Virus record (IMG/VR): IMGVR_UViG_3300045988_128133
Source of the DNA: a virus
Strand: one strand, 5' to 3'
DNA: 64,000 nucleotides
Position 1 is the first letter of the stretch, and each line of letters opens with the position of its first letter. The translations under genes were made by a program, and so were the position numbers. The notes beneath the pieces were generated by a model. The model was not told the DNA's origin. It did not search any database and worked only from the letters and a program-made list of their open reading frames with translations. Shown here piece by piece: positions 18,947 to 61,478 of the stretch.

Positions 18947-20137
18947 ATGTCAGACAATCAAATTCCCGCTACTGCGGAGGCCCCCGTATCTAGAGCAATC
19001 GACACCGCCATTCATGGCCTTTTTGAACAAGTATTTAATGACTCCCCGGCACCCACGGAATCCGTGGCTCCCGTGGGTACAGTTGTTACCTCTGACCAGC
19101 CACGCATAGCGGAGGCCGAGGTAGAACAGAAAGTCCCCATTGAATTGTCCAACCCCAATGGCAATCCCGTAGAACCGGAACCAGAAGAAGGGGACGATGA
19201 GAAGGACACGGAAGAAGGGGACGATGAGAAGGACACGGAAGAGGGGGACGATGAGAAGGACACGGAAGAAGCTCAGCCCAAGGAAAAGCGGGCAAGCAAG
19301 GCCGCAAGCAAGGCGTTTGCTGAAATGCGAGTCCAGCTGAAAGAGGCCAAGAAGGAGATTCAGGAACTGAAACAGCAACTGGATGCGGCTAAGACGGCAA
19401 CCCCGAATAACGAAGAACTGGAAGCCCTTCGCGAAATTGTCAAGGGATATGCCTTCACTGCGACAGAGGAATACAAGACCCAAGTCACCAACCCCTACAA
19501 CAAAGCTAATGCCAGGATTGCCGACATTGCTCGCGAGGCTGGGGTATCTGTCGATATGAACAAGCTGAACGAAGTTGCCCTCAACCCTGAGCTGGATGCC
19601 TTCGACAGAGAGGAAGCCTATGAAACAATCGGAACGGACGCTGGATTGAGTGGAGCTTCCCTCTCCCGTTTTGTTCGGATGGCCAAAGTCCGTGACGCGG
19701 CTATCGAAGCTCACGGGAATTTCCAGGCTGACGCTGACAAGTATGTTGAAGAGCTGAAGGCGAGCAGGGGTAAATCGGGAGATGGCGGCAAGTATGAAGT
19801 CAACCTTGACAATTATACGCTGGAAGCCATGAAGGACCGGGCTAAGGAGCTGGGGATTACCACCGAAATTACGGAAGAGAATCTTAAACATGCCCGCCAT
19901 TTGGCTCACAAAATAAATAACAGTTCCTTCATGGATGGAGCCCTTGCGGAAATCATGCAGAAGGAACTGCTGGAAGCTCGCGGGCAGATTGAAGCTCTGG
20001 AAGCCAAGGTGAAGAAGCTTCGTGGTGTCCGACCCTCCCCAGGGAAGGGCAGTCCAGAAGCTCCAGAAACGCCGAAAGCCGCTAAGCCTATGAGCGTAAG
20101 CGACGCTATCCACAGTGCGTTTGACCTGCTTCATTAA
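18947..20137 (+). CDS. scaffolding protein (acidic repeats + coiled coil)
   Basis: EEGDDEKDTE x3, then a long predicted coiled coil, immediately upstream of the MCP. Confidence 0.55.
   Translation: MSDNQIPATAEAPVSRAIDTAIHGLFEQVFNDSPAPTESVAPVGTVVTSDQPRIAEAEVEQKVPIELSNPNGNPVEPEPEEGDDEKDTEEGDDEKDTEEGDDEKDTEEAQPKEKRASKAASKAFAEMRVQLKEAKKEIQELKQQLDAAKTATPNNEELEALREIVKGYAFTATEEYKTQVTNPYNKANARIADIAREAGVSVDMNKLNEVALNPELDAFDREEAYETIGTDAGLSGASLSRFVRMAKVRDAAIEAHGNFQADADKYVEELKASRGKSGDGGKYEVNLDNYTLEAMKDRAKELGITTEITEENLKHARHLAHKINNSSFMDGALAEIMQKELLEARGQIEALEAKVKKLRGVRPSPGKGSPEAPETPKAAKPMSVSDAIHSAFDLLH
19184..19264 (+). repeat. 27-nt tandem repeat x3 (GAAGAAGGGGACGATGAGAAGGACACG) inside scaffold gene
   Basis: Three tandem near-identical units encoding EEGDDEKDT. 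Confidence 0.9.
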
Positions 20138-20155
20138 GAATTATTAAATATTTCC

Positions 20156-20178
20156 TTGACATTCAGTCGGGAATACTC
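20156..20178 (+). promoter_or_regulatory. possible promoter TTGACA with weak -10
   Basis: TTGACA at 20156-20161 in the 210-nt leader upstream of the MCP. The -10 is poor. Confidence 0.3.
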
Positions 20179-20185
20179 CAAAAAG

Positions 20186-20263
20186 GGTGCATCCAAAGCG
20201 GTGCATCCTTTTTGCTTTCCCGCGAGCAAACCAAATTCCTATATATTGCAGGTGCATAAATCC
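20186..20263 (+). promoter_or_regulatory. three direct repeats GGTGCAT(C/A) upstream of MCP gene
   Basis: GGTGCATCC at 20186-20194 and 20200-20208, and GGTGCATAAATCC at 20251-20263. This is a candidate activator/late-regulator site. Confidence 0.35.
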
Positions 20264-20349
20264 TGGTCCTGTCCCTGCCATGACCGCCAAAGAACCCCTC
20301 AAATTCTTCCAAGAGAATAACGTTGCCATATTAACTACAAAACTACAAA

Positions 20350-21609
20350 ATGGCTACTACTTCTCCTAACGACATTCAGGCCCAGGAACTTAAGTTGGTT
20401 ACGATGACCAACCTTCTCAACGCTACCATGTACAGCACGTTTGCTCGTACATCTCCGTGGAACTCCCAGATGATTATGTCTGGCGAATGGACGGACGGCG
20501 TGGGTGACTCCGGGCGTATCGCAACCTTCGGTGCTACGGACCCCCGTCCCGAATGGATGAACATCAGTCTCGACTCCACCTCTGACCAGATTCCGATTAC
20601 GGTCAACCGTACGGGTGCCACCACCTATTCCTACAGCCGCTTCATTACGCGCCTGGCTTCTGAAAAACTGGACGTGCTTCGTATGCGCCAGTCCTGGCAG
20701 GCTCAACAGCAGGCTGAAAACATCGTCAAGCAGTTGGTGCGTGCCGTGGGTAACGCCTGGTCCCGTTTCTACCGTCAGAGCTACATCAACATTGCGTCCT
20801 ACAAGCTTATCCCCACGAAGGCTGGTATCGTCGGTCTCGACGTGGTGAGCAACGATATTAACTCCATGCCGGAAGTTAAGCCGGAAGCCGCGCTTAACGA
20901 CGACCTGATGAACCAGGCATGGCAGTTGCTCATTAACGAAGGAGCTGGCGACTCTGCCGCCTTCATGGACCAGGGTTCCCCTGTGTTCCTGGCCTACACC
21001 TCAAAAGATACGGTTGACTTCATCCTGCGTGAAAACCAGGTCATCCATAAGGACTGGAACTTTGCCGAAGCCGCTGAAGGCAAGGAAGCTACTCTGCTTC
21101 GTCAGCTGGGTGTGAAGTGGACGTACAAGGGCTTCACCTACGTCGTGGACAACATGAACCCCCGCTACACCTTCGACGACTCCAAGCCGACTGGTCAGAA
21201 GTGGGTTGAAGTTCCGCAGTACATCCCGGTCGAAACCACGGTGGGTACCCGCTATGTCCCGAACCCTGCCTACATGAACGCCCCGTATGAAGATACCATC
21301 ATCTTCGTGAAGGACGTGTACAAGTCTCTGGTTCCTCGCCCCGTGTCTGCCTACGGCCAGGCCAAGTGGGACCCCGTGACCTACGCTGGGGAACTCACCT
21401 GGGTGAACAACAAGGACAACGATGCCAACTACATGGGTACTCAGGGTCTGTTCGTGGCTACGCTGTCTGCGGCCCCGATGCCTGTCTTCCCGCGTCACGG
21501 TGTTGTCATTCGTCACATCCGCACGACCTCTGGTCGCAACCTCGTGGGTGCCGACGGTCAGCCCATTGGCTCTCTGGTCAGCACTCCGTCCGCTGTTGCT
21601 GGTCTGTAA
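20350..21609 (+). CDS. major capsid protein
   Basis: 419-aa ORF directly after scaffold and followed by a strong terminator. The call rests on position and size. Confidence 0.6.
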   Translation: MATTSPNDIQAQELKLVTMTNLLNATMYSTFARTSPWNSQMIMSGEWTDGVGDSGRIATFGATDPRPEWMNISLDSTSDQIPITVNRTGATTYSYSRFITRLASEKLDVLRMRQSWQAQQQAENIVKQLVRAVGNAWSRFYRQSYINIASYKLIPTKAGIVGLDVVSNDINSMPEVKPEAALNDDLMNQAWQLLINEGAGDSAAFMDQGSPVFLAYTSKDTVDFILRENQVIHKDWNFAEAAEGKEATLLRQLGVKWTYKGFTYVVDNMNPRYTFDDSKPTGQKWVEVPQYIPVETTVGTRYVPNPAYMNAPYEDTIIFVKDVYKSLVPRPVSAYGQAKWDPVTYAGELTWVNNKDNDANYMGTQGLFVATLSAAPMPVFPRHGVVIRHIRTTSGRNLVGADGQPIGSLVSTPSAVAGL

Positions 21610-21632
21610 TATAAACCCTTAACTCAGTAACC

Positions 21633-21672
21633 GGGGCGGGTGGGACATTCCTGCCCGCCCCAATTTTATTCT
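21633..21672 (+). terminator. rho-independent terminator GGGGCGGG-loop-CCCGCCCC + AATTTTATT
   Basis: 8-bp GC stem and T-rich tail right after the MCP stop. Confidence 0.7.
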
Positions 21673-21676
21673 CACA

Positions 21677-21946
21677 ATGAAGATTGCTTACGACCCTGAA
21701 AAATTTGGTGAACTTAAACCCGGCGATGACGTACAGGTCATGGGTGTCGGTATAGTTTCCGACGACGGTAAATCCATCGAAATCGTCTCCATCGAAGACC
21801 AGGAACTGGATGAAGAGGGTGACGATAAAGATGGCGATAAAGATGACGAAGAATCCCCCAAAGACGAAACCCAGGAAGAAACTGATGAAGAAATGGCTGA
21901 AGGTGCTGACCTTGATGCAATCATTGCTTCCGGCTTCGGCGCGTAA
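21677..21946 (+). CDS. small acidic protein
   Basis: 89-aa ORF with a D/E-rich middle (DEEGDDKDGDKDDEE). Confidence 0.5.
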   Translation: MKIAYDPEKFGELKPGDDVQVMGVGIVSDDGKSIEIVSIEDQELDEEGDDKDGDKDDEESPKDETQEETDEEMAEGADLDAIIASGFGA

Positions 21947-21964
21947 CTTAACCCTTTTACTCTA

Positions 21965-22492
21965 ATGGAAATCGACCTCCCAACCACTAAACCCATCGTA
22001 CTGACTCCCGGTGAAGAGAACATGCTCATCCCCGAAAGTGAAGGGGATTTCATCATTACCCTCACCAGCGACCGCGGCACGCCTACGGCAACTTTTACTG
22101 AGGATGACACTCCGAAGGCCCAAGGCACTTCCCTGTTTAATAGAGAGTTCAAACTCCATATTAAAACACAGGCAATCCTTGTCGTAAAGGAAACCGTAGC
22201 AGACACCGTAATTACTTTGTCGGTAGCAGAAGCTCCCGAAAGCAAGTATGGGACGGCGGCAGTCGCCCCTGGCGTTGCTCACCAGGTGAACTTTGTCCCA
22301 GACAGCAACAAGCCGGAAACCCAGTCTGCCGTCATCTACTTCGGCGAATCTGTACAGGCTTCTGTGCAGGAAGTTTTCGTACACGACGGAGATGTTGTCA
22401 TTCCCGCGCACGCCACAGCCCATGTACCTGTAGGTCACAGTATCACCATTACCCCGCTGGTTGAACAGACCAAAGCGGTGTCTCAAGCTTAA
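21965..22492 (+). CDS. virion structural protein (hypothetical)
   Basis: 175-aa ORF in the head/tail module. Confidence 0.45.
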   Translation: MEIDLPTTKPIVLTPGEENMLIPESEGDFIITLTSDRGTPTATFTEDDTPKAQGTSLFNREFKLHIKTQAILVVKETVADTVITLSVAEAPESKYGTAAVAPGVAHQVNFVPDSNKPETQSAVIYFGESVQASVQEVFVHDGDVVIPAHATAHVPVGHSITITPLVEQTKAVSQA

Positions 22493-22511
22493 CTCCTAAC
22501 TCATTTATTTT

Positions 22512-23486
22512 ATGCCTGCAACTAAACTTCCCATTCCTGCAACCAAGGCCGCCATCAACCGTGGCGAACTCTATCAACTGACGGGGCTTCAAAACGGTAC
22601 CCGGTACAAGTTTGAAGTCACCTCCACTAAGAGAGCCTTTGTAACCATTGCTGAAGATGAACAGCTGAAGAAGGTTCAAGCTGAAGGTTTCCTCGATGGA
22701 ACCGCTTATCACTTCTCGACAGAGGGCAGTCAAACCTCAGCCTATCTTCGCATTGACGCACTGGAAGGTGCCGAGATTGTGCTGAACATGAAAGCTGACC
22801 CGGTACCCGCACCTGAAGGAGCCCAGCTCCCGAAGGACCTTTCGCCTGATAAGTGGTACAGTGTTGAGAACCTTACGGAGAACACTCTGTACGAATTGAA
22901 GGTAAGCGCGGATGCTCCTGTAACCGTGTTCGTCAAGACTGGCGACCAGATTATAAGCGCGATTGAAGAGCCTCCCTTCACCACACAGGAAGGTTCTGTT
23001 CGATTCTATGCAACCGGAACGAATGCCTGGATTTACGTGGATGGGGCCGTTCCTGCAAATGTTGCCCTCGTTCCTGCAACAGGTATCGAAGGATTTACGA
23101 AGCCGCAAATTACGGCCCTCTCCAGCACGGTGACAGCCGTATCTCTCATGGGCCCTGCCCCTGCTGGGTACTACAGTGTTGAGTTCGTAACGCATGCGGA
23201 CGACCTCTCCTTCAAACAGGACCAGGTTCTTACAGTTGTTTCTCAGAATGTAGCCTTCTCTCTTCTGAACTCAGTTGCTTCTGACGGGCAGACTATGCAA
23301 CCTGCTTATCTTGCTAACAGTGAGTTCACTGGGAAAGACGTTCGAGGTAAGATTGTTTTCTCCCAGACCACGCCGCTTGGTGAAGGGCAGAGCGCACAGG
23401 TTCTTACCATTACGCCGCCCACGGGTGGGAACGCACAGCAGTACTCCGGCACGGCCATCATCACCTTTGCTGGGAATATCGCGTAA
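22512..23486 (+). CDS. virion structural protein (hypothetical)
   Basis: 324-aa ORF in the structural module. Confidence 0.45.
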   Translation: MPATKLPIPATKAAINRGELYQLTGLQNGTRYKFEVTSTKRAFVTIAEDEQLKKVQAEGFLDGTAYHFSTEGSQTSAYLRIDALEGAEIVLNMKADPVPAPEGAQLPKDLSPDKWYSVENLTENTLYELKVSADAPVTVFVKTGDQIISAIEEPPFTTQEGSVRFYATGTNAWIYVDGAVPANVALVPATGIEGFTKPQITALSSTVTAVSLMGPAPAGYYSVEFVTHADDLSFKQDQVLTVVSQNVAFSLLNSVASDGQTMQPAYLANSEFTGKDVRGKIVFSQTTPLGEGQSAQVLTITPPTGGNAQQYSGTAIITFAGNIA

Positions 23487-23519
23487 TACAGCAACTTAAA
23501 CCTTGACGGGCCCGACCCC

Positions 23520-25676
23520 ATGAGCTATAAGCTTTACCGGGCCGGGCCCAAATTATTTTCAATCATGAATATCAAAGAATACGTAAACGGTTCAGCTATC
23601 GAGCCGGGTGTAACTTACAAGATTGGAACCGCGGATGCCAATTCTGCGTGGACTCTAATCTCCGACCGTCCGATTCTCTTTAAGCTGTCAGCCACGGAAC
23701 CCACGGATTCCGAGTGGTCTAATGTAACTGAAGAGCAATACCTCATCAATGGTGCGCTCTCCAACCAGGTTCTTAAAATTGAATCACCTGCTGGAAAGTT
23801 CTTCGTCGTCCCCACTAATGCACAGGATTCCGCGGCTACCGTGGAATCCGCGTATGCCAAGGTCTCTCTCAAGCCCCTGGGGTTTGACTATGAGGACACG
23901 TATGAGGCACTGCCGCTGGAGGGCGATGGCCCCGTAGCCGAAGGCTTCTACAAGATTTCCAACCTTGAATCCGGCAAGCTCTACTCCATCAATGTATCTC
24001 CTGATGCTGGTGGTCTTAGAGCGAACAACCCTATCCCCGAATACGCCTTTGCCCTTTTCGCTGTAGATGGTTCGAACAATCCCAAGGCTCTTCTGGCCGC
24101 GGGGAATTCCGGTAAGCAACTGGTCTTCGTGGCTACCGAAGCTACGGCTATCATCAACCTCAGCTCCACCATTGAAGAGAGCGAGTTCTTTGTCAGCATC
24201 CGAAATTTTAGTGTAGGCTCTGGTGGTGGAAGCGGCTCTGGTTTTGACCCTGCGTCTGACCAGAACATTACCGGGGCCTGGTCTTTCTCCAATGTAACGG
24301 GCTTAACCATGGCTGATAACGCGGCCATTAAGCTGGGCACGGGAGACGACGCTGTTCAGATTAGAGGGTCGAGCAATGGAGCGGCGGTGATTGAGGGGAC
24401 AAACAAGTCCCATCTTGACATTGCTGTCCCCCTGAAATTGCAGAACCCGGTGACGGTAGATGATAGCCTCAACTTCATTGCCACTACTGGTGAGAAGATG
24501 AAGGCCATTCAGTTTGGCACAGCCGCGGGCATGGCTCGTTGCATTGTGTTTGAAGAGGCCAACAAATTCCTCAGCATTGCTAATCCTGCCAACGTTAACC
24601 AGAAGACGCTCACCATCGACGGTAGCGGCAATATCTGGTTCTATCTGGTAGAGAACCATAATGGACAGTGCAACTTCAACACAGAGGTGCGACTCAATAG
24701 CACGGTTTCAGTTGGCGGGGTTGCCTCGTTCAACAAGACCGTCAACGCGAACCAGGGGATAAACATCCCCCTGACCGTGGGAATCCCTACGGACACCTCC
24801 GTAGTGAACCGTGCCTATGCGGCAGGGTTGGGAACCATTGCCAATATTCTGTCCACTGAGGCCTATCTTAACACAGAGTCCCTGTCGGCTACACAAAGTG
24901 CGGCTATCACCAAGAACGTTCCTTACGCCAGTGCTGATATTCGAGTAAATAACGGAGCCCATTCTACCATTCAGGGAGAATTTCATGCTCGCAGTTTCCA
25001 GTGGAACTATTCCAGTTTTGCGGGTATCTCCTTTATTTGGAGGTGCACGGGGGCAAGTAAGCTCACCTTTGGCATTGGCCGTGGTAGCAAGGACATTCGC
25101 ACAGACCTGTCCATCAATTCGTACAGCATGATACCGGGCAGTTCCCTCGCATACAATCATGGGGAAATCTTTGACATCACCTTCGACAATTCCAGAGATT
25201 CTTCCCGTAATGGATATACTGTGAAGGTCCGGGAGATTTATGCTCTCTCCGCTGATACTGGCTGGAAGGTCAAGACGACTACCAGCTTCATTCCTGCAAC
25301 CAATAACGAACCCATACCGTGGACGGTATGCAAGGTCATTTACATGCAGGAGAAAGTTGCGGCAATAAATAAATACGAACCCACGGGAGCTATTTATCTC
25401 ATGGTCACAGGTGGGCAAGGGAATACCCTGTTCAAAATCGCCACCTGCCGGGGTATCTCCAACTTCGAGTCGGGTGTAGGCCTGAGCCGCTGGGTGACGG
25501 ACGTAGTGAATAATACCACCGGAAGTATTTCCGTAAGCGTTGGCAACGGCGACTACACCTTCTACCAACCAGGTGGTACCAACCCCGCGTACTACGCACT
25601 GAACGCTCTGGCCCGCGACTGTGTGGAAAGTGAAGATACCGCAGACTTCGCGGACATCAATGAACCTATTCAGTAA
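23520..25676 (+). CDS. tail fiber/structural protein (hypothetical)
   Basis: 718-aa ORF with a Gly-rich linker (GSGGGSGSGF). Confidence 0.45.
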   Translation: MSYKLYRAGPKLFSIMNIKEYVNGSAIEPGVTYKIGTADANSAWTLISDRPILFKLSATEPTDSEWSNVTEEQYLINGALSNQVLKIESPAGKFFVVPTNAQDSAATVESAYAKVSLKPLGFDYEDTYEALPLEGDGPVAEGFYKISNLESGKLYSINVSPDAGGLRANNPIPEYAFALFAVDGSNNPKALLAAGNSGKQLVFVATEATAIINLSSTIEESEFFVSIRNFSVGSGGGSGSGFDPASDQNITGAWSFSNVTGLTMADNAAIKLGTGDDAVQIRGSSNGAAVIEGTNKSHLDIAVPLKLQNPVTVDDSLNFIATTGEKMKAIQFGTAAGMARCIVFEEANKFLSIANPANVNQKTLTIDGSGNIWFYLVENHNGQCNFNTEVRLNSTVSVGGVASFNKTVNANQGINIPLTVGIPTDTSVVNRAYAAGLGTIANILSTEAYLNTESLSATQSAAITKNVPYASADIRVNNGAHSTIQGEFHARSFQWNYSSFAGISFIWRCTGASKLTFGIGRGSKDIRTDLSINSYSMIPGSSLAYNHGEIFDITFDNSRDSSRNGYTVKVREIYALSADTGWKVKTTTSFIPATNNEPIPWTVCKVIYMQEKVAAINKYEPTGAIYLMVTGGQGNTLFKIATCRGISNFESGVGLSRWVTDVVNNTTGSISVSVGNGDYTFYQPGGTNPAYYALNALARDCVESEDTADFADINEPIQ

Positions 25677-25681
25677 ACGAC

Positions 25682-26170
25682 ATGAACAACGCAGAGATTC
25701 AAATCCAATTCCCCGAACCTGGTATATGGACGGTGATGAGCATGTCCGCGGTTTATGCGGATGCCGATGGTTTCAACCGGGTAGATACCTATACACAAGA
25801 CACTCTCCCTCCTGAACAGATACCAGCCCTGGAAGCCGCGATTACTGCGATAGCCACGCTGGAAGAAGACTGGAGGGCAAGGCAGGTCTGGGCCCGACTG
25901 GTTACGGAAACCATAGTAACCGCGGAATCCGTGGAATCCGTGGAAACCATTCTTCTCACTGTCGAGGCTATCAACAAAAACGGAGGGACTCGAATGTTCC
26001 GGCCATCCGAATACGAACAATTTCGGCTGACGGACACAGGTTCCCTGTCCTTCTTTAAATACTTCACAACTAAACAACCATCAACCATTTATGGAGATAC
26101 AGGAACTTCTGAACCTACTCCTGCTCCTGAAGCGGTAAAGAAGGTTCGAAAGACTAGAAAGTCCAAGTAA
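25682..26170 (+). CDS. hypothetical protein
   Basis: 162-aa ORF. Confidence 0.45.
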   Translation: MNNAEIQIQFPEPGIWTVMSMSAVYADADGFNRVDTYTQDTLPPEQIPALEAAITAIATLEEDWRARQVWARLVTETIVTAESVESVETILLTVEAINKNGGTRMFRPSEYEQFRLTDTGSLSFFKYFTTKQPSTIYGDTGTSEPTPAPEAVKKVRKTRKSK

Positions 26171-26177
26171 ACCATGG

Positions 26178-26211
26178 GGGCCGGGGGAACAATCCTCCGG
26201 CCCTCTTTTGT
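26178..26211 (+). terminator. rho-independent terminator GGGCCGG-GGGAACAATCCT-CCGGCCC + TCTTTTGT
   Basis: Stem-loop plus T-tract after ORF 25682..26170. Confidence 0.6.
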
Positions 26212-26229
26212 CATACTAAAATAAACTTA

Positions 26230-26257
26230 TTGACAAAAGTAAAAATCCCTGTATGTT
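26230..26257 (+). promoter_or_regulatory. sigma70-like promoter TTGACA-16-TATGTT
   Basis: The consensus hexamers open the accessory island. Confidence 0.5.
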
Positions 26258-26264
26258 GATGCAC

Positions 26265-26585
26265 ATGGATAACAACCCATCCACAAAAAACATCGTAGTA
26301 GTTCAAGACATGACTAATGGTCTTAGCCATGTCATTGAAAGTGAAACCAACGGGGGAGAAGATGTGAAGAAGTACGTTTCTGTCGTGTCCCCCACGGCTC
26401 CCCGTCCAGTACCTCTGTCCCAAATGACCTGGGAGGAAGCGGAGATTGATGCTTTCTGTATCGTTCGGCTCCTCGACCCATCACTGTCCCCTGAACGGGA
26501 ACCTTCGGAGTCGGAATCACAAATTAAGAAAGAAGTGGAATTGACCATTAAATGTGCTAAGAAACGATTGAACAAACAAAACTAA
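26265..26585 (+). CDS. hypothetical protein (start moved to ATG 26265; ATG 26253 lies in the -10 box)
   Basis: In-frame ATG 12 nt downstream of the track start. Confidence 0.4.
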   Translation: MDNNPSTKNIVVVQDMTNGLSHVIESETNGGEDVKKYVSVVSPTAPRPVPLSQMTWEEAEIDAFCIVRLLDPSLSPEREPSESESQIKKEVELTIKCAKKRLNKQN

Positions 26586-26586
26586 A

Positions 26587-26994
26587 ATGGAAAAGCAAGA
26601 TAGATTCTTCCAGAGAGGAGACGAGGTGCGGTTCATCAACCGAGGCAGACCTCTCCCCAAACAGTTCAAGTATGATAAAACGTATATAGTAACTCGAAAT
26701 GAAACGGAAACTGGGCTAGTAGCTATTGAGGGTTTAGACTTCTCAAGTTTCATGTTGGAATTGGTTTCACCCGTTGAAAAGAACTTTCCTTTCGGATTTC
26801 AGGAAGCAGTAAAATACATGATGGAAGGACATATTCTGGAAAGATTGTCCCCTATACATAATGCTAGATTTCGGGTACGAATGATTGATGGGCACATTCA
26901 AAGCAGGCATAATGAATCTACTGACGACAGGGACTGGTGCTCTTGTGCGCTCGATGACGAAGATGTTATGTCCAGGTGGAAAATTGTTGACTAA
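26587..26994 (+). CDS. hypothetical protein, member of GD(E/K)VR(F/Y) beta-barrel-like paralog family
   Basis: The RGDEVRF motif is shared with ORFs 27037, 28386, 28737 and 52973. Confidence 0.45.
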   Translation: MEKQDRFFQRGDEVRFINRGRPLPKQFKYDKTYIVTRNETETGLVAIEGLDFSSFMLELVSPVEKNFPFGFQEAVKYMMEGHILERLSPIHNARFRVRMIDGHIQSRHNESTDDRDWCSCALDDEDVMSRWKIVD

Positions 26995-27026
26995 TTAACC
27001 AATTAACCAATTAACCAATTAACTAA
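26995..27026 (+). repeat. tandem 8-mer TTAACCAA x3 + TTAACTAA
   Basis: Perfect tandem octamers between the stop at 26994 and ATG 27037. Confidence 0.9.
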
Positions 27027-27036
27027 TTGAAACACA

Positions 27037-27609
27037 ATGAAGAGAGAAGATTGTAAACCGAACAAGATTGTCATGTTGAAAGGAGTCATTGACCATGATG
27101 ATAAAACTACAGTACGTCCTATTAAAGTGAACTTCATTCGCCCTGATGAGGACGAACCGCCTTATGCGTGGTTCGACCCGGACCAGTTGCTCGAAGTTAA
27201 GGAACCCACAATTAGCCGGACAAGAAAGTTCTGCAAGGGGGATAAGGTACGGTACGTTTCCAGTGGACGTATGGATTATATTAAGGTACCAAAAGCAGAT
27301 GAAGAGTATGTAGTCACTGTCTCTGAGTTGGATGGCTGGGTTAATATAAAGAACGACCAGTATGACAACTGCGTTAAATGGCATGACCTGGAACTCGTGG
27401 AACCCGTGGATTCCGTGGGTGAAAGGAACCCCTATGAAATCGGGGACTATGAAGGTGCTTATTTCCGCATCCAGCGTGATGGACGATATATCCATGAAAT
27501 CTGGTATAGTTCAAACCTGGGCAGTCCCTATACTAAAGCGGAAGCCCGCCAGATAGCGCAGGAACTCTGTGATGAATTAAACCGTAAGTACAACCCCTCA
27601 AACAATTAA
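27037..27609 (+). CDS. hypothetical protein (MKREDCK N-terminus; KGDKVRY family)
   Basis: 190-aa ORF. Its N-terminus and 5' flank are near-identical to ORF 52973. Confidence 0.5.
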   Translation: MKREDCKPNKIVMLKGVIDHDDKTTVRPIKVNFIRPDEDEPPYAWFDPDQLLEVKEPTISRTRKFCKGDKVRYVSSGRMDYIKVPKADEEYVVTVSELDGWVNIKNDQYDNCVKWHDLELVEPVDSVGERNPYEIGDYEGAYFRIQRDGRYIHEIWYSSNLGSPYTKAEARQIAQELCDELNRKYNPSNN

Positions 27610-27634
27610 ACCGTAAGTACAACCCCTCAAACAA
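27577..27634 (+). repeat. 29-nt perfect tandem duplication (TTAAACCGTAAGTACAACCCCTCAAACAA x2) spanning stop codon of ORF 27037..27609
   Basis: Two identical 29-mers at 27577-27605 and 27606-27634, followed by a partial TTAAACC. Confidence 0.9.
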
Positions 27635-27650
27635 TTAAACCCAACAAGAT

Positions 27651-28112
27651 ATGCCAATACTCAATCTTACAGTCAGCCAGTATATTGTCGTTGCCCTTCT
27701 CATCACCCTGTGGGCTTTCATTGCCCGCTGGGTTATGGCCTGGGTGAATGGCCGTAAAACGGAAGAGGTGAAAAAACTTTGGAAGAAGCAGGGGATAGAA
27801 ACCAACTCCTTCCGAACCCGCGGAAGCCAATACACTCTGTACGAGAAGGGAGCCATGGAACAAATGCATGATACTCTGGTCAACAGGTTTATGCACATTG
27901 TCTATGGAGCCTGCATCTTCTTCATTATGGTGGTCACGGCAGAAAGCATTTACTTCTTCATGACCCCAACTACTGTTGGTGCTTACTTCGCAGGGCTGGC
28001 AGTATGGCTCGCAGGAACTTTCTTCTGGTCTATCTTAGCTACCCAGTTTACTTACTACATCACCCTGCTGTGTGAAAAGCGCAGGCTGACAAATAATAAG
28101 CTTGACGAATAA
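27651..28112 (+). CDS. membrane protein (about 4 TM)
   Basis: 153-aa ORF with multiple hydrophobic helices. Confidence 0.5.
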   Translation: MPILNLTVSQYIVVALLITLWAFIARWVMAWVNGRKTEEVKKLWKKQGIETNSFRTRGSQYTLYEKGAMEQMHDTLVNRFMHIVYGACIFFIMVVTAESIYFFMTPTTVGAYFAGLAVWLAGTFFWSILATQFTYYITLLCEKRRLTNNKLDE

Positions 28113-28135
28113 AACTCCTATTACATAATAACTGC

Positions 28136-28399
28136 ATGTCACCAACACCAATCAAAGAGACGCTTAATTGTCCAGTGTGCGGCTTGCCCTTGTACCTATC
28201 TGACGACCTGTTTACGAAGGACCATCTGGGATATAGTTGCTATGAAGACCGTAATGTCTATTACTACGAATGCCCCGACTGTCCTCTGGCAACCGAATAT
28301 GGAGATACGGAAGAAGATGCTTGGGAGAAAGCTAAACAACTTGTAGATAAGTGTCTTGAAAAATTTAACCAGAAGGAGGCTTCCAATGGCGATGCTTAG
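28136..28399 (+). CDS. zinc-ribbon protein, paralog family A (CPVCG...)
   Basis: CPVCGLPL...CPDCP. Its N-terminus is homologous to the next two ORFs. Confidence 0.5.
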   Translation: MSPTPIKETLNCPVCGLPLYLSDDLFTKDHLGYSCYEDRNVYYYECPDCPLATEYGDTEEDAWEKAKQLVDKCLEKFNQKEASNGDA

Positions 28400-28718
28400 A
28401 TGCCCTGTATGTAACACTCCCCTAAAAGAATTCGAGGATTCCGCATACGAACTTAGTTCTGTAGGCTGTCCCCGGTGCGAATGGACTACGTTTAAAGCGT
28501 ACCCGGAAGAAGCGTGGAAGGCCGCTGAAAAATTTATCAACGAGTTCCCGCCCGCTATGCGGGTGCATCCAGGAGATAAGATTATCTACTTCGATAACCT
28601 GTATCATAGGGTAGGAGGAACCGTTATGGGGAAAGACCCGGTTACCATGCGAATCATACTCGAAGACGGAAGCACTACAGCTGACATGGTGTACAAATGG
28701 CCCTGGCAACTGAACTAG
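28386..28718 (+). CDS. zinc-ribbon + PGD beta-barrel protein, paralog family A
   Basis: ATG 28386 is preceded by GGAGG. CPVCNTPL...CPRCEW and FPPAMRVHPGDKII closely parallel ORF 28737 (FPPLMRVWPGDVVS; KWPWQL/KWPWEL). Confidence 0.5.
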   Translation: MAMLRCPVCNTPLKEFEDSAYELSSVGCPRCEWTTFKAYPEEAWKAAEKFINEFPPAMRVHPGDKIIYFDNLYHRVGGTVMGKDPVTMRIILEDGSTTADMVYKWPWQLN

Positions 28719-28736
28719 AAAGGAGAAAGGAGAATA

Positions 28737-29234
28737 GTGAAAACGTTTAAATGTCCCGTGTGCGGAGGCACCTTCGAACTGCAATCCGATTTGGCCTTCT
28801 ACGATTACCATGAAGCAACCTACGAACAGGTGCATTACTATGTCTGCGACACCTGTGCCCTCACTTCGGACTGGCAGTATATCGAAGATGAGGCGAGGAA
28901 AAAGCTGGAAGCCCTTATCCGCAGGTTTCCCCCTCTCATGAGGGTCTGGCCCGGGGATGTAGTTTCATGGGGAGTCCATCCCGTTACGGTTCTGGATAAG
29001 GATGTCCAGTGCGGAGAACTGCTGGTACTAGATTCTTATGGAAATAAACAGCTTCTTGAACAACGCGTCATTGATAAATGGCCATGGGAACTTGAACAGG
29101 AAAAGGAAGAGAGAAACTGCTATAACTGCAAATATAGCGCACTGTCTTGCAGGGACCATCCCTGTAACGCATGTTCGTCACCGGAAGCACCTGAGTGTTA
29201 TAAGTATTGGGAAGCTGAACCGAAAGAAAACTAA
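28737..29234 (+). CDS. zinc-ribbon + PGD beta-barrel protein with extra C-terminal Cys cluster, paralog family A
   Basis: GTG start after AAAGGAGAAAGGAG. CPVCGGTF...CDTC, then C-terminal CYNCK...CRDHPCNAC. Confidence 0.45.
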   Translation: MKTFKCPVCGGTFELQSDLAFYDYHEATYEQVHYYVCDTCALTSDWQYIEDEARKKLEALIRRFPPLMRVWPGDVVSWGVHPVTVLDKDVQCGELLVLDSYGNKQLLEQRVIDKWPWELEQEKEERNCYNCKYSALSCRDHPCNACSSPEAPECYKYWEAEPKEN

Positions 29235-29389
29235 TGCTATTCGACATCATATATTTGTTCGTCATATTGGCCACCATCGCTGTCTTTGGGTATTACTACT
29301 ACATGGCAGGCAAGGTGCAAGGAGTTCTTATGGCCCTCGAAATTTATCTGACGCACAACGACGAAAAGGAAAATGAAACTGACACCTGA
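29234..29389 (+). CDS. small single-TM protein (51 aa)
   Basis: ATG ORF with a hydrophobic N-terminus (LFDIIYLFVILATIAVFGYYYY) absent from the track. It overlaps the next start by 17 nt. Confidence 0.3.
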   Translation: MLFDIIYLFVILATIAVFGYYYYMAGKVQGVLMALEIYLTHNDEKENETDT

Positions 29390-29726
29390 ACAGCAGGCCT
29401 TTTACCGATATGGGTTTGTCAAAGCCTGTTTATGTCTTAAAATCCAAGAGGCTCGTGATTATGCGCGATACACCTACGGGACAACCTACGCTAAATTAAC
29501 ACCGAAGGAACGGGCAGACTGTCGAAAGCAATTTCAAATTGAATTTCTTCTCGACCTGGTAAGGGACCGAAGAGTCACGTGCCGGGCGTGGGTACCGCCG
29601 CGACAACGCGGTTGCTCAACCTGTAGGCATGACGGAACTCATTACAAGCTTTGTGCACTCTGCCACGGTGAAGGATGGCCTGTCAGCTGGGTACCGAAAA
29701 GGAATTCCCTAGGTAAGATGAAATGA
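29373..29726 (+). CDS. Cys/His-rich hypothetical protein
   Basis: CRAW...CSTCRHDGTHYKLCALCHGEGW. Confidence 0.45.
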   Translation: MKLTPEQQAFYRYGFVKACLCLKIQEARDYARYTYGTTYAKLTPKERADCRKQFQIEFLLDLVRDRRVTCRAWVPPRQRGCSTCRHDGTHYKLCALCHGEGWPVSWVPKRNSLGKMK

Positions 29727-29748
29727 CAAATTCTACTAAATAATATTC

Positions 29749-29776
29749 TTGACAAAACAACCGGGGGTACTACAAT
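29749..29776 (+). promoter_or_regulatory. sigma70-like promoter TTGACA-16-TACAAT
   Basis: Consensus hexamers 25 nt upstream of ATG 29801. Confidence 0.5.
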
Positions 29777-29800
29777 ACCTCCGAACTCCAATCAAATTCA

Positions 29801-30022
29801 ATGATGAAGTTAGACCCTATCGTACCCTCCTGCGCTCACTGCCATTACAGCGACCTGCCTTCGGAGTCGTTCCCGTGTTCAGATTGTGACAAAGACTATA
29901 GCCAATTTACAGCCAAGTCTATCTGCCGTATCTGTTCACTCGCAAGCATGTCACTCTGCCAACCTGATTGTTTCACCTGCAATTCATCCTGGGCAGAGAT
30001 TAAGAACAACAAAAAGAAATAA
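29801..30022 (+). CDS. CxxC zinc-finger protein, paralog family B
   Basis: CAHCHYSDLPSESFPCSDCD...CRICS...CFTC. It matches the pattern of ORF 30030. Confidence 0.45.
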   Translation: MMKLDPIVPSCAHCHYSDLPSESFPCSDCDKDYSQFTAKSICRICSLASMSLCQPDCFTCNSSWAEIKNNKKK

Positions 30023-30029
30023 CCACCCC

Positions 30030-30602
30030 ATGTCTCAAACCAAACTTACAGAATCCTGTGACCATTGTGTCTATAATGAATTGAGAGGGAATGATTATCC
30101 CTGCTCAGATTGTTCATCCCAAGGGACCCATTTCACCCCGGACCCCATATGTCAAAAATGTGAACATGCGGACACCCCTGTGGCAGATTATCCTTGTTCA
30201 ACCTGCCGCATCGAATCTGATAGGGGACATTACGTAGAATCCACGGAATCCACGGAACCTGTGTCTCCGTGCCAGTCCTGCCCGCACGCGGGGACCCCTC
30301 CGCTCCAACAGCCATGCGCGGACTGCGGTCACAATGGGCTTAGTGCGGGCATTCAAAGGAACAGAGAAGCAGAGTACCAGCGGTTCGTGGAGGAAATGAA
30401 TGCACGCCCAGCCGCCTGTATCTGCGGGGAGAATCCCGAATATGTGGAAGACAACATCTATCCCGGAGAAGTCCACCGCTATGTGGTCTGCAACGGGAGT
30501 CACCCCGTCCCCCATTCCCTGTCGGTCCACGGCGGCAATAGCCGGGAGGAAACCATTGGACGATGGAACGCTTTTATTTTCAATCTTAAAAACAATAAAT
30601 AA
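30030..30602 (+). CDS. multi-CxxC zinc-finger protein, paralog family B
   Basis: The start is at MSQTKLTESCDHCVYNELRGNDYPCSDCS. The pattern repeats about four times (CQKC...CSTC...CQSC...CADC). Confidence 0.5.
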   Translation: MSQTKLTESCDHCVYNELRGNDYPCSDCSSQGTHFTPDPICQKCEHADTPVADYPCSTCRIESDRGHYVESTESTEPVSPCQSCPHAGTPPLQQPCADCGHNGLSAGIQRNREAEYQRFVEEMNARPAACICGENPEYVEDNIYPGEVHRYVVCNGSHPVPHSLSVHGGNSREETIGRWNAFIFNLKNNK

Positions 30603-30604
30603 TT

Positions 30605-30838
30605 ATGTATATGGCAAACACACCGCTCTATCATAATCAGGTCCGACAAATGCGTAAACTACTTCAGATTAACTTCGGCATACCCTGGGAAGAACTTGCG
30701 CTCATGACAGACAATGAAGCCGAAGAAACTCTGTCCTCCCTGGGGTACACCCTCGTCAAAACCGCCTCTGTGGATGACGGCACTCTGTACGTCGTCCCCA
30801 AAGACCTGCTCGAAAACGCTTTCACTCTAAACCGATGA
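30605..30838 (+). CDS. hypothetical protein
   Basis: 77-aa ORF. Confidence 0.4.
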   Translation: MYMANTPLYHNQVRQMRKLLQINFGIPWEELALMTDNEAEETLSSLGYTLVKTASVDDGTLYVVPKDLLENAFTLNR

Positions 30839-30914
30839 TTATGTTTCTAATCGGCGCGGCCATGGCTCTCTGCCTAATCTACATCATTGAGAATAACGAA
30901 CCACTTTTACCTGC

Positions 30915-31397
30915 ATGAAGAATCAAGGAAAACTCATCCAGCACCCAGGGCTCAAGTACCCACGGAAACCACGGAATTGTACACCCGCTGTAAAGAAGAT
31001 TCCCTATGGCTACATGTCCACCCAGGAAATCGCGGAAGCCGTGGGTAGAACTCCCACCTGTGTTCTCGTTACTCTGGAACGCCGCAAGGTGCCGAAGGTA
31101 CGTTCCGGCAAGATGGTTTACTGGGACGGAGACATAGCACGGGAATATATTAAAACACTTAACTCAGACGTGTACGAGGGAATTCCTAACGGATATACGG
31201 ATATGGAAGGAGCCCTGGAACTCACTGGTTTTAAGAATGGAGCGACCCTCTCCACCATGTTTAAGCGCGGGCGGGTCCGGCGTGTCCGGTACCGTGATGA
31301 CATGGGTGCCGGGAGAAAGACGCGATTCGCGTATAATATTCTTGACCTGGAACGGCATATGGGCTTAACTAATGTCACCGAAGATGACGACGAATAA
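30915..31397 (+). CDS. HTH DNA-binding protein (Xis/AlpA/MerR-like helix-turn-helix)
   Basis: MSTQEIAEAVGRTPTCVLVTLERRKVPKVRSGKMVYW fits the AlpA/excisionase-type HTH pattern. Confidence 0.45.
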   Translation: MKNQGKLIQHPGLKYPRKPRNCTPAVKKIPYGYMSTQEIAEAVGRTPTCVLVTLERRKVPKVRSGKMVYWDGDIAREYIKTLNSDVYEGIPNGYTDMEGALELTGFKNGATLSTMFKRGRVRRVRYRDDMGAGRKTRFAYNILDLERHMGLTNVTEDDDE

Positions 31398-36226: not shown

Positions 36227-36959
36227 AATCAAAAAGATTCAACAGCTGGTCGGCGTGACCGCTGACGGCATTATCGGACCGAAGACCATTGATGCAATTC
36301 TTAAACGGCTGACCCCGGAATCCACGGGTACCGGGGATTCCGCGGGTACCGTGGATGCTCATGAAATCCGCAACCGGATGGCCGCTAAAATCCTGAACAT
36401 GGAGGACTACAAGATTACGGGGCCAGAATCCCTGCGGGTTACGCGCCTCCCCTCCGGCGATGGTGGCGGCACCTGGGAGATTGCAGGTATCTGTGACGGG
36501 ATTGAACCGAAGGTGTTTAACCGGATTAAATCCCTGCTGGACAAGGGACTGCGGGATGAAGCATGGGAAGAATGCCTTAGCTACGTACTGGAGAACACCT
36601 CCAAGATTGTAAGCTATCTTCCGAACTATGGTTTCGGCTACGAATTCATGGTACGCGACCTCGCGTTCAACATGGGTACCGGAGGTGCCGTCAATGTCAT
36701 CCAACGCATGCTCAACTCTGTGGGAGATGCTGGCCTTACAGTGGATGGCAAATGGGGACCTAAGACTCAAGCCGCCCTACGAAGCGTAACGGATGTTATT
36801 CCAGAAGCTGAAGTTGTCAGGGGGCTGGACAGGGCGGCCCGTGCAAGGTATGAAAGCATTGTCAAGGCCAACCCTGTTAAGAAGAAGTTCCTTAAAGGTT
36901 GGTTTAACCGATGCGAAGCTCGTGTTAAGTTTGCCGAGACTATTATGTCAAGAAAATAA
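36210..36959 (+). CDS. endolysin: GH108-like muramidase domain + PG_binding_3-like C-terminus, with N-terminal PG-binding repeat
   Basis: DGIIGPKT and DGKWGPKTQAAL PG-binding repeats. GGGTWEIAGI and C-terminal FLKGWFNRCEARV match the GH108/PG_binding_3 architecture. Confidence 0.55.
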   Translation: MTQKAKIKKIQQLVGVTADGIIGPKTIDAILKRLTPESTGTGDSAGTVDAHEIRNRMAAKILNMEDYKITGPESLRVTRLPSGDGGGTWEIAGICDGIEPKVFNRIKSLLDKGLRDEAWEECLSYVLENTSKIVSYLPNYGFGYEFMVRDLAFNMGTGGAVNVIQRMLNSVGDAGLTVDGKWGPKTQAALRSVTDVIPEAEVVRGLDRAARARYESIVKANPVKKKFLKGWFNRCEARVKFAETIMSRK

Positions 36960-42642: not shown

Positions 42643-45600
42643 ATGGCTATTGACTTTACTACAGCTAGCCCGGCAGACTGGAACCCCAGTTCTGAAATCA
42701 CCGGAATCCGAGAAGCCCGCGCCGCAGAAAAGCATGCGGCATGGCAACGGGGTCAGGAGCAGAAAGCTCTCGACCGTCAGAAGAAGGAAGCAGAAGAAGC
42801 ACAGAAACAGGCCGTTAAAGGCGTAGAAGCGGAAGCGGATTTCTTCACTCACCTGTCCGGCGTACTGGACACCGAACGCAAGGAACAGGAAAAACGAGCC
42901 AAGGAACAGAAGACGGAAGCAAGGAAAGAAGTTACCGAGGCCCGTGCCGACATTCAGTTTGAGCAAGGGCAGGCTGACCGTGCGCGTGCTGAACGCGACC
43001 GGGATGTCAAATCCCTGTCCCGCCGCAACATGGGGCTCAACTTCGAAGCCCTTGAGGACATGACCGACTACGTTGGCCGCAGTGCCGATAGCTTTGTTGA
43101 CCTGAAAGAAGGGGCCAAGGCTAACCCGCAGGTGATGGAAAAGCTTGGCAACTCTCTGGGTCTCAATGTCGTAAGCTCCAACTCCCTTACGCCTACCGAC
43201 CCTGCATTCACTTCCCGGTTCGGCTTCTCTGTCGGTGCGGATGGACAGCCAGTTATTACTGAAAAGTTCCTCGCTATTGCCGCCGACCGGAACCGTAGCA
43301 GTAAGGATGTAAGCACGGCGATTGCCCGGACTCTGGCCGCTGAACGGAAGAGCTACATTAAAGCGAATACGACTGTGGCTCCTGACAGTGCCGCGAAAGC
43401 GGAAGCGGAAGCCCCGGAAACCATGGAAGCCGAAGAGATTAAGGCAATCATCGACAGCATTCGCCGCGAGGATGTAAATACCTTCAATGCGGCACGCAAG
43501 GTTTACGACAAATATAATACGGCATCCACGGAATCCATTCAGGGTAAAGCCGCTAAACCCCGCGAGGCTAGCGTGGGGGAGCTTGGCGTTGGCGAATCCT
43601 TTGACACGGCACCTTCATTCACTGGGAATGTATTTGCTGAGCTCGCCAACTTGTCCAAGTCCCCCAGCACCATGTTCCGTCTCGTCCGCGACTACGGCAA
43701 ATACGTAGCTGACACGGCATCCACGGTAGCCGCGGATGCCCGTGCCGCTGAGGCCGGGAAGCGGGCCGTCACTGCCGCGAAGACGATTGACAATCTAGTT
43801 AAGCAGATGGAGGACGAGTATGAGGGCATCAACTCCGTAGCCCTCCGGGATGCTTTGATGAACGAAGCCAAGGTTGCCGAGGCCGCCGTGAAACGGTTGG
43901 CCCCCATGGTTGACCTCGACGAGATGCGGGCCATGGCTGACAAGAAGAGCCATGAACTGGGCCGCACCATTGAATCGGATTACCGCCGCGATTATGCTGA
44001 CACGCTGTATGCCGAACTGGAGAAGCGCAATCCAGGATTGAGCCGTGACCTGATTCGCACGCTGGGAACTACGGAACTTCTCGACAAACATACCGTTGGA
44101 CTGAAGAAGAGAGGAAGTCTGGATGACGCAGTAGCGGGAGCTATGAGCCAGTACAGAAGTGCGGCAGGCCAGGTTGCCGACGTTCTCACCTTCCAGCCGA
44201 AGGCTTCGGTAGGCAAAACCAGTGACCCCCTGAGTGCTATGGAATGGCGGCAGGGTGCGCGTGGCTGGGAATATGGCGTAGTTGGCGGTCCTACCTTTGA
44301 GGTCAGCACCGAACAGCTCCGCGACTACATGAAGAACTATGGGATTAAGAGTACGAAGGACGCGCTTAATTCCCTCAGTCATGCGGCGAGGCAGGGGGAC
44401 CTCAACCTTGGCAGGGGTACGCTGTTTGCATACAACCCCCATACTAAGGAGGTAGATACAAACGCCACGCTTCAATACAACCCCAACGCCCTGTACGATG
44501 ATGACCTATTTAACCGTAGCGTCAATCAATTACAGGAATCCGGGGCGAATCCCGAACTCATCGAGAGAACGATTGAACAGTGGAAGAAGGCCCGCACCAA
44601 ATCCGCAAGCGAAATGGTCAAGCAGAACATGGAACTGGAAGAAACTCTGGGCGCGCTCCGCGATACCTGGATGGGAACTGGTGCCGGGTTTGCTGGAGGC
44701 TGGGTTATGGACCGTCTGGACAAGATGCTGTCCTTCAAGGAGTTCTATAACAGCGGCAAGGAGAATGGCCAGAGTGATGAGCAGATTCTTGCCGCATGGC
44801 AGAAGGAAGGACAGGGGGCTATTAACTCCATCCTGCGTGGCCTTCAAATCGGCGCACACAAATTTGCTGACATTGGGACGGGTGCTGTTGCGGGCTCCCT
44901 TCTTTTCGCCTCCAACCTTATAGGCAGTGACACTGGCCGGGAAAAAGCCCGCACCATGTGGAACACGCTGAATGAAAAACAGCAGGCAGAAGGTGAACTG
45001 GTCAAGGGGAATCTCATGGCTGACATGTCTGCGGAGATTGTCAACCTGGGATATCAAATGGTAGCGACCCATGTCGGTGGTACGGTTGGCAGTGTTGCGG
45101 GCCGTGCTCTGGAACGGACTGCGGTCAATGGTCTCATTAAGGCCAGTGCCAAAGTCATCGCCCGAAAGACGGAAGCCCTTGTCCCTGCCGCGCGTCCCGG
45201 CCTTGCTAGTGGTATTAGCGGCGGTGTCCAGCGTGTATTAAACCAAGCCGCCGCGATTGACCTCCAGCGGGTTGGAGCTGGTGCCGGGGTTAATACCGTC
45301 ATTGCCAGCCAGATAGTTCCGCAGGCATACTCCGAAATCTTCTATGCGGTTTACGACCGTGAAATGGATGGTAAGGAACACACTGCGGAAAACCTCGAAG
45401 CCGCTCAGGCAAAGGCTAATCGCCGGGCCATGATGGGTGCAGGTATCGCGGGTGGCATGTCCGTCCTGATTAACAACCGTATGGGTATGGAATCCTTTAT
45501 CCGTAAAGCAGTTGGAGCTAAAAACCTTCGCAGGGAAAACTGGTTCAACCGTGTGGATGACCGTCTTTCCAACTGGCGCAGGAAGAACTGGAAGGACATG

Positions 45601-53578: not shown

Positions 53579-53665
53579 GCAACGATAGACATTCTGTTTG
53601 GACTGTAAGTTGTGTTTGGGTTCTTAGCATCGGCCCCCGTAGGTTAATTCCTACGGGGGCCATGT
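53579..53665 (+). ncRNA. candidate small RNA (about 85 nt) between promoter and terminator
   Basis: Promoter at 53543-53572, no ORF, and a 12-bp-stem terminator at 53632-53661 followed by a U-rich tail. Confidence 0.3.
53632..53661. terminator. bidirectional terminator at convergence point (GGCCCCCGTAGG-TTAATT-CCTACGGGGGCC)
   Basis: 12-bp perfect stem between the last + gene/sRNA and the stop of the - strand ORF 53668..54168. Confidence 0.7.
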
Positions 53666-59758: not shown

Positions 59759-59792
59759 AGAACTTATTAGTAGCGTTATATGAGGGTTCTAG

Positions 59793-60359
59793 TTAGGCGC
59801 GGGTGTTGTCCTGAAGAGAACCACCAAGGATGAGACTTTCTATATCCAGCGGGTGTGCCGGGTCGAGGCTGATAGCTAAAGCGTCCACGTTAAAATCTAC
59901 CAACGTTTCCCCGTAGGGTTCAATGTCCGCGGGCCTGTATTTAACCTCACGGGTCAGGGCCGGGCGAGCCTTGAATAGTGCGGAGAAGAGGTTCGTAGAG
60001 TAGCGTACTGCATTGAAGCCCATTTGATATGGCGTGTAGAAGAGTGTCGCATAGTAGTGTTCTTGTCCGCGCTTAATTATGGGAGTGTTTAGCCGCATAA
60101 TCTGAACACATCTCCGGTCATGGTCGTTGCGGTAGGTGGCCGTCAGGGTTACTTGCTTTTTCTGCCACCAGGCGGGACCAAGCCCGAAGCCTTCCAGTTC
60201 AATGACATTTGGAGTCACTGGCTTCCGGGGAATAACTATCTGGGTCGGCTCATCTACCATAAACAGAAGACCTTTCGGAAGTCCTTCGTAAACCGTCGGG
60301 TTCTTCTTCACGTAGTCAGCGAGAAGCCAAATCTGCTGGGCGAGTGCGATTGATTTCAT
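59793..60359 (-). CDS. hypothetical protein
   Basis: 188-aa ORF. Confidence 0.45.
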   Translation of the reverse strand: MKSIALAQQIWLLADYVKKNPTVYEGLPKGLLFMVDEPTQIVIPRKPVTPNVIELEGFGLGPAWWQKKQVTLTATYRNDHDRRCVQIMRLNTPIIKRGQEHYYATLFYTPYQMGFNAVRYSTNLFSALFKARPALTREVKYRPADIEPYGETLVDFNVDALAISLDPAHPLDIESLILGGSLQDNTRA

Positions 60360-60396
60360 TATCTTATTGATTAGTAGGGTTATATGAGGGTTCTAG

Positions 60397-60744: not shown

Positions 60745-60767
60745 AGCGTTCTATGAGGGTTCTAGAA

Positions 60768-61376: not shown

Positions 61377-61478
61377 GATTTATAGCGTTCTATGAGGTTT
61401 CTAGTATTTTGGTTGATGTTAATTTAGGTTAATTATCTTTTTTCTTTTGGATTGTTAGGGTAGCCTAATTTGTTAGTT

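Follow-up and report, generated by a model that had tools for sequence, protein, structure and literature searches.

A 29-nt tandem repeat of variable copy number at the boundary between two accessory genes of a human-gut phage

The locus and its genome

We analyzed a stretch of 64,000 nt (the window) that makes up most of a phage genome of about 72 kb found in many assemblies of human-gut metagenomes. Where two plus-strand genes of this phage, ORF 27037 and ORF 27651, adjoin, a sequence of 29 nt is repeated head to tail across the TAA stop of the first gene, and the array ends 9 nt before the second (Table 1). Both of the ORFs named in the original prediction (27037-27609 and 27651-28112) exist, with the refinement that the stop codon belongs to the second copy of the repeat. 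Searches against Pfam and PHROGs gave no match for ORF 27037, for ORF 27651 or for their neighbours.

The repeat is located in a stretch of lower G+C (44-47%, versus about 52% elsewhere), which is occupied by small ORFs without assigned function and has a gene content that differs between relatives. It is placed between two predicted promoter-like sites, the one at 26230 and the next at 29749-29776, and therefore inside one transcription unit. Near-consensus TTGACA-N16-18-TAnnnT sites are found in the larger intergenic gaps of the window, at about 3828, 10081, 11055, 20156, 26230, 29749, 42556 and 53544, and AT-rich tracts precede them.

Table 1. Coordinates of the features at and around the junction
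Feature	Position	Strand	Description
Operon context	26176..26257	+	strong terminator-like hairpin 26176-26205, then TTGACA-N16-TATGTT 26230-26257
8-nt array AATTAACC x4.5	26993..27028	+	between ORF 26587 and ORF 27037, just upstream of the latter
ORF 27037 (upstream gene)	27037..27609	+	190 aa, no known family; mosaic, variable accessory gene; homologues of 46-96% identity
In-frame 9-nt repeat TGGAACCCG x3.3	27389..27418	+	inside ORF 27037
Junction island	27560..27720	+	sliding-window identity at least 90% from about -52 to +70 around the stop
29-nt tandem array	27575..27641	+	2.3 perfect copies, unit AATTAAACCGTAAGTACAACCCCTCAAAC; 1, 2 or 3 copies in related phage contigs
First AATTAAACC 9-mer	27575..27583	+	other two at 27604-27612 and 27633-27641
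Copy 1 (register of the original prediction)	27577..27605	+	encodes L-N-R-K-Y-N-P-S-N-(N) of ORF 27037; co-segregates with the upstream gene
Copy 2	27606..27634	+	stop codon and otherwise non-coding spacer; 1-3 bases different in other genomes; co-segregates with the downstream-gene haplotype
TAA stop of ORF 27037	27607-27609	+	bases 2-4 of copy 2; position relative to the protein fixed at any copy number
ORF 27651 (downstream gene)	27651..28112	+	153 aa, hydrophobic N-terminus
In-frame 27-nt repeat x3.3	19184-19271		acidic EEGDDEKDT; in the 396-aa ORF upstream of the capsid gene

The window encodes a helicase-primase, a family A DNA polymerase, an exonuclease, a terminase and an NAD-dependent ligase. 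The phage has no close relative in culture. Its DNA polymerase shares at most 25% identity with the enzyme of any cultured phage, and neither megablast of the region nor tblastn of the capsid protein found a match among 50,697 phage records. A scan of bacterial genomes for the junction, as a sign of a host or prophage, gave no match either, and Rfam and tRNA scans of the whole window were also without match. The 419-aa ORF at 20350 had no Pfam or PHROG match. Its AlphaFold model is of low confidence (pLDDT 51, pTM 0.55), and the best PDB matches of this model were the capsids of phages N4 (E 7.6e-5) and Moo19 (1.7e-4). It is plausible that this ORF encodes the major capsid protein, and the 396-aa ORF upstream of it may be the scaffold protein. 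The 3199-aa ORF (42643-52242) had no Pfam, PHROG or PDB sequence match, and no sequence support was found for reading it as an N4-type virion RNA polymerase. A giant ORF together with an N4-like capsid model (ORF 20350-21609) in a genome of about 72 kb gives a layout that seems reminiscent of N4-like phages with their giant virion RNA polymerase.

The leader of the putative capsid gene is 212 nt long (20138-20349), and parts of it are conserved among relatives. Even relatives of 53% identity keep the TTGACA box and most of TTTTTGCTTTCCCGCGAGCAAACC, in which a TTGCT/AGCAA stem is possible. In the same leader TCCTGGTCCTGTCCCTGCCATGACCGCC is conserved only among relatives of 90% or more, and GGTGCATCC forms a direct repeat at 20182-20208.

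Structure of the array and its effect on the flanking genes

The perfect 29-nt tandem duplication that had been described was confirmed. The 29-mer TTAAACCGTAAGTACAACCCCTCAAACAA occurs twice in succession with 0 mismatches, where 0 were expected (100 shuffles). The array is slightly longer than had been noted, with a third AATTAAACC 9-mer at its end, and Tandem Repeats Finder reports it with a period of 29, 2.3 copies, 100% matches and a score of 134. This 9-mer was found 3 times versus 0.46 expected, one on each side of every 29-nt unit. The unit itself is made up of 45% A, 31% C and 7% G.

Since 29 is not a multiple of 3, the bases of copy 1 that match the stop codon of copy 2 are read as TTA-AAC (Leu-Asn) and not as a stop. 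The base after the unit completes AAT-TAA identically in every case (with a single unit it is the following AATTAAACC that gives the same AAT-TAA), and therefore the upstream protein is unchanged by copy number, its C-terminus ...LNRKYNPSNN* being identical with one, two or three units. What copy number alters is only the spacer from this stop to the ATG of ORF 27651, which is 12, 41 or 70 nt long, and the last 18 nt of the ORF 27651 leader, TAAACCCAACAAGAT plus ATG, are the same in all alleles. An extension of ORF 27037 through the repeat by read-through or frameshifting was rejected, given that read-through would not be in frame with ORF 27651 and that the sequence has no slippery site.

The body of ORF 27037 is bracketed by a 15-nt direct repeat, in which TAAACCGAACAAGAT at 27054-27068 (+) matches TAAACCCAACAAGAT at 27636-27650 in 14 of 15 positions, and both copies can encode K-P-N-K-I in one frame. 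In contig L094 (909-1145) a 46% homologue of ORF 27037 is followed directly by a 78-aa gene, the start of which (MNRKECKP...) resembles the N-terminus of ORF 27037 (MKREDCKP...). The junction leader may be the vestige of a lost tandem paralogue of ORF 27037. As a general leader motif TAAACCSAACAAGAT was discarded, for only two local copies exist.

Copy number in related phages

We compared the contigs that encode the two flanking proteins or homologues of them, together with the contigs that have the junction 19-mer. Looking for one versus two copies at this junction in related phages had been proposed as a check, and alleles with 1, 2 and 3 copies were found. One unit is present in contigs L003, L007/8/10, L086, L088, L089-91, L092/93 and L094. 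Two units are present in the window and in contigs L001/L009, L002/5/6, L004, L033, L014, L016 and L018 (at least nine assemblies), and in several of these assemblies copy 2 differs from copy 1 at 1-3 bases. Three units were found in one genome (L013 = L034), the units 1 and 2 of which share a C>T change, a pattern that indicates a second round of duplication.

Every diverged homologue of ORF 27037 (46-96% identity) is single-copy and the multi-copy states appear only with the window's own 190-aa allele; therefore, one copy is the ancestral state. The array has undergone more than one expansion. In the single-copy alleles L003, L007 and L088-L091, two AATTAAACC 9-mers at a spacing of 29 nt are already present. 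L003 and the window are exactly one unit apart with 0/540 nt differences upstream and 0/462 in the downstream gene, so that the change in copy number between them is very recent. This pair, together with the identity of the units in the window, supports the recent duplication proposed originally. Head-to-tail units, a copy number that varies among near-identical genomes and a flanking 9-mer in the single-copy state are characteristics of a variable-number tandem repeat (VNTR), and these three are found here.

The junction as a boundary between modules

Around the stop codon there is a short island of high identity between genomes (Table 1), flanked by gene bodies that are only 40-80% identical. 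The two sides behave differently in different relatives. Contig L007 has 145/540 differences from the window at the left side and 12/900 at the right, and contig L088 has 10/540 at the left and 428/722 at the right. The left and right genes assort independently, and the junction is the boundary between modules of a mosaic genome. The copies of the repeat follow the genes next to them. Copy 2 of L002/5 has the GCAC variant that is found in the single unit of L092/93, and the downstream genes of these two groups are 4-5 nt apart; in the same way, the CTCC variant of L007 is also found in copy 2 of L004/L033, whose downstream gene differs from the one in L007 by 1-2 nt. Thus copy 1 stays linked to the upstream gene, and copy 2 to the downstream-gene haplotype.

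In L088 (1274-1346), a 96% relative, only the first ~25 nt of the 153-aa downstream gene remain before unrelated sequence takes its place, and there is no AATTAACC array upstream. This contig illustrates the sharp clustering of exchange points at the junction. No inverted repeats or recombinase-site-like symmetry were found there.

Other repeats in the same phage

The 29-nt array is one of several unstable repeats. The AATTAACC array upstream of ORF 27037 has 2, 3, 4, 6 or 7 units among related contigs, some of them with C/T alternation. The in-frame TGGAACCCG repeat is one unit shorter in the three-copy genome L013. The 27-nt repeat upstream of the capsid gene has one unit fewer in L040 (where the protein has 387 aa), and it is the end point of several contigs, the 71,872-bp one of ERZ1689595 among them. 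As the 8-, 9- and 27-nt repeats vary too, no function specific to the locus is needed to account for the 29-nt array. We also considered AATTAACC as a genome-wide junction signal and rejected it, because its excess is due to the tandem arrays; one copy outside them is the loop of a terminator hairpin (53630-53661).

A different element is present at junctions on the minus strand. It is 31 nt long, CTAGAACCCTCATA(T/G)AAC(G/C)CTA, and has four copies, at 59766-59796, 60370-60400, 60739-60769 and 61378-61408. Each copy begins directly behind the stop codon of a small gene and extends to 0-20 nt from the following ATG, with a TAGAAC/TA(T/G)AAC direct repeat 11 nt apart. Inside this four-copy family lies AGAACCCTCATA, with three exact copies and one with one mismatch (minus strand, 59779-61402). 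The element is kept by 95% relatives and has diverged in a 71% relative. It is unrelated to the 29-nt repeat.

The window has also an over-represented, quasi-palindromic motif with a period of 9 bp, (GGAWYCCRY)n, found between 56 and 51873; examples are 1600-1625, 5925-5950, 25920-25949, 27389-27418, 36317-36356, 46426-46480 and 50475-50500. Allowing at most one mismatch, GGAWNCCNNGGAWNCC has 85 matches versus 1.9 expected. A regular-expression search gives 49 plus-strand sites, spread over more than 20 different genes, all of them within 1-52 kb and none in the minus-strand module. In 43 of the 48 genic sites the motif is in one codon phase, giving E/D-S/P-V/T tripeptides. The codon choice inside the motif is skewed when compared with the genome (GAA 97 vs 69%, GAT 88 vs 39%, TCC 90 vs 36%, GTG 83 vs 24%), therefore pointing to a constraint, or to a common origin, at the level of DNA. 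This motif is probably the most interesting feature of the window, and both it and the minus-strand junction element hold more interest than the neighbouring 29-nt repeat.

Interpretation of the array

We consider it very likely that the 29-nt duplication is a near-neutral VNTR, a scar of slippage or recombination at a module boundary, and not a transcription signal. The copy number is polymorphic, the protein is unchanged, 9-mers flank the units, each copy is linked to its neighbouring gene and promoter features are absent. The neutrality of the array, and the molecular route by which it arose (slippage or unequal crossover), we infer. The array would be one allele of a VNTR located between two accessory genes of an uncultured human-gut phage. 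In the ancestral junction a single unit would already have been flanked by the two AATTAAACC 9-mers at a distance of 29 nt, and out-of-register pairing between these could add or remove whole units, either through replication slippage within a single genome or through unequal homologous recombination of mosaic relatives during co-infection, two routes that are indistinguishable from assemblies alone. Against near-neutrality stands the frequency of the two-copy state, which occurs with second copies that have diverged, on two haplotypes of the downstream gene; it has either been maintained or originated several times, and this could reflect selection for a longer spacer. Against a view based on recombination only, the nucleotides of the junction are better conserved than the flanking genes and could be a functional translation-initiation region.

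A more elaborate version, which we regard as unlikely, is that the AATTAA(A)CC-based arrays at both sides of ORF 27037, together with the junction island, are dedicated linkers that steer homologous or microhomology recombination to gene boundaries. Co-infecting phages would then exchange accessory genes as whole cassettes, the 29-nt repeats would be the footprints of these exchanges, and copy number might also tune the expression of the next gene.

It is rather improbable that copy number is itself functional, with the unstructured, A/C-rich spacer tuning the translational coupling or initiation of the downstream membrane-protein gene in the manner of a contingency locus. Such a role would fit a repeat that alters nothing other than the stop-to-start distance, that has a leader-like composition and an unstructured RNA (MFE of the array -1.2 kcal/mol, z = -0.17; z = +0.60 for the 121-nt context), in a phage where most genes are without Shine-Dalgarno, so that the accessibility of the leader may matter, and where multi-copy alleles are frequent. 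However, the nucleotides immediately before the ATG do not change among alleles, repeats without any conceivable link to ORF 27651 vary equally, and diverged second copies are tolerated.

The original prediction saw in AACCCCTCAAACAA a promoter- or leader-type signal, duplicated here, that would form one family with a site in the capsid-gene leader and with the minus-strand junction element. We find this highly improbable. The unit is indeed located in an intergenic leader, and it loosely resembles, with one indel, the core of the genuine four-copy minus-strand element. The part of the claim that stood is that an exact 11-mer, AACCCCTCAAA, is common to the unit and to the capsid-gene leader. 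This sole further copy in the window is at 20293-20303, 47 nt ahead of the ATG of 20350. The match is nevertheless at chance level, given that in 46% of trials a random 64-kb sequence had an 11-mer in common with a 38-nt query. Two further 11-mers from the 29-nt unit likewise turn up again, within coding regions. For the 16-mer, the 64-kb window offers no additional copy below 3 mismatches. The motif in the capsid leader is not conserved either: it falls in a variable patch that reads ACCCCAAAACAAAT in relatives with 91% capsid identity, in which the neighbouring blocks of the leader are kept. At the junction itself, the most diverged homologue of ORF 27037 (46% identical) retains the peptide ...LNRKYN... 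but encodes it by other codons and lacks AACCCCTCAAA, and the conservation of the unit in closer relatives is explained by the coding of LNRKYNPSNN plus recombination.

A genome-wide profile scan had been named beforehand as the test that could refute the proposed family, and its outcome went against it. An nhmmer profile built from the minus-strand elements recovered its own four members alone (E 6e-10 to 7e-8) and, up to E = 100, neither of the sites on the plus strand. The AACCCTCA core of the minus-strand element is itself changed in the 71% relative. Nor are there promoter features: a scan of 19500-31000 found neither a sigma-70 hexamer pair 16-18 nt apart nor a terminator within 27575-27650, and there is no -35/-10 pair in the unit, the clear TTGACA-N16-18-TAnnnT sites being found instead in the larger gaps. 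An A/C-rich, G-poor composition is common to all leaders of this phage (in the 20 nt upstream of starts, A is 39% vs 26% and G 13.6% vs 25.4% genome-wide), and the resemblance of the motifs is due to it. A family of junction motifs would have many copies above chance and be conserved at the orthologous junctions of diverged relatives, and we found neither. There is no promoter shared with the capsid gene, and this false lead can be removed.

That the duplication is an artefact of assembly or circularization, such as a k-mer-sized overlap from the joining of a circular contig, is hardly credible: 29 is a k value of MEGAHIT and the Logan contigs L011 and L012 end inside the repeat, but breaks of this kind are expected at a genuine repeat, and the recurrence of the array, internally, in independent SPAdes, MEGAHIT, JGI and Logan assemblies of different samples, together with several alleles that have non-identical units and one that has three, which no joining artefact can yield, therefore indicates that the multi-copy state is not produced by assembly.

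We regard the near-neutral VNTR as a clear natural case in which a tandem repeat that leaves the protein unaltered keeps a record of slippage and out-of-register recombination at the boundary of phage modules. As a strain marker it could be of use for this widespread gut phage, and alone it matters little.

Comparison with known systems

Mosaic phage genomes have conserved boundary or linker sequences at the junctions between modules. The junction described here is similar in that a short island of high identity is located exactly at the gene boundary and the flanking genes assort independently. It is different in that the boundary holds a repeat, the copy number of which records out-of-register exchanges, and specificity of a recombinase is not implied. 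Like sigma-70 promoters, the 29-nt unit is placed in a leader region, but it does not have their pair of hexamers.

Short asymmetric repeats in one orientation are found at the junctions of mycobacteriophage genes, the start-associated sequences of Cluster K and the stoperators of Cluster A, the former a few bases (3-7 nt) before start codons (PMC3203893). Elements of this kind correspond to what the original prediction had proposed. The minus-strand junction element is like the start-associated sequences in position and orientation. The 29-nt unit, in contrast, is 17-46 nt from the ATG, has no further copies in the genome and is not conserved beyond its coding role.

The array behaves like VNTRs that arise through slipped-strand mispairing or through unequal recombination of short direct repeats, and the number of its units varies among near-identical genomes. 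The repeats of Borg elements are perfect, fast-evolving and A-rich, with flanking partial repeats and with arrays that begin in the end of an ORF (PMC9879509). The array of this phage has in common with them its perfect head-to-tail units, a flanking partial repeat (the 9-mer), its richness in A and its start in the end of an ORF, and also an intergenic unit length that is not a multiple of 3, while the in-frame repeats of the phage are of 9 and 27 nt (PMC9879509). It differs from the Borg repeats in having only 1-3 units, in belonging to a phage of ~72 kb and not to a giant archaeal element, and in that the variants of its second copy match other haplotypes, pointing to recombination between genomes besides slippage.
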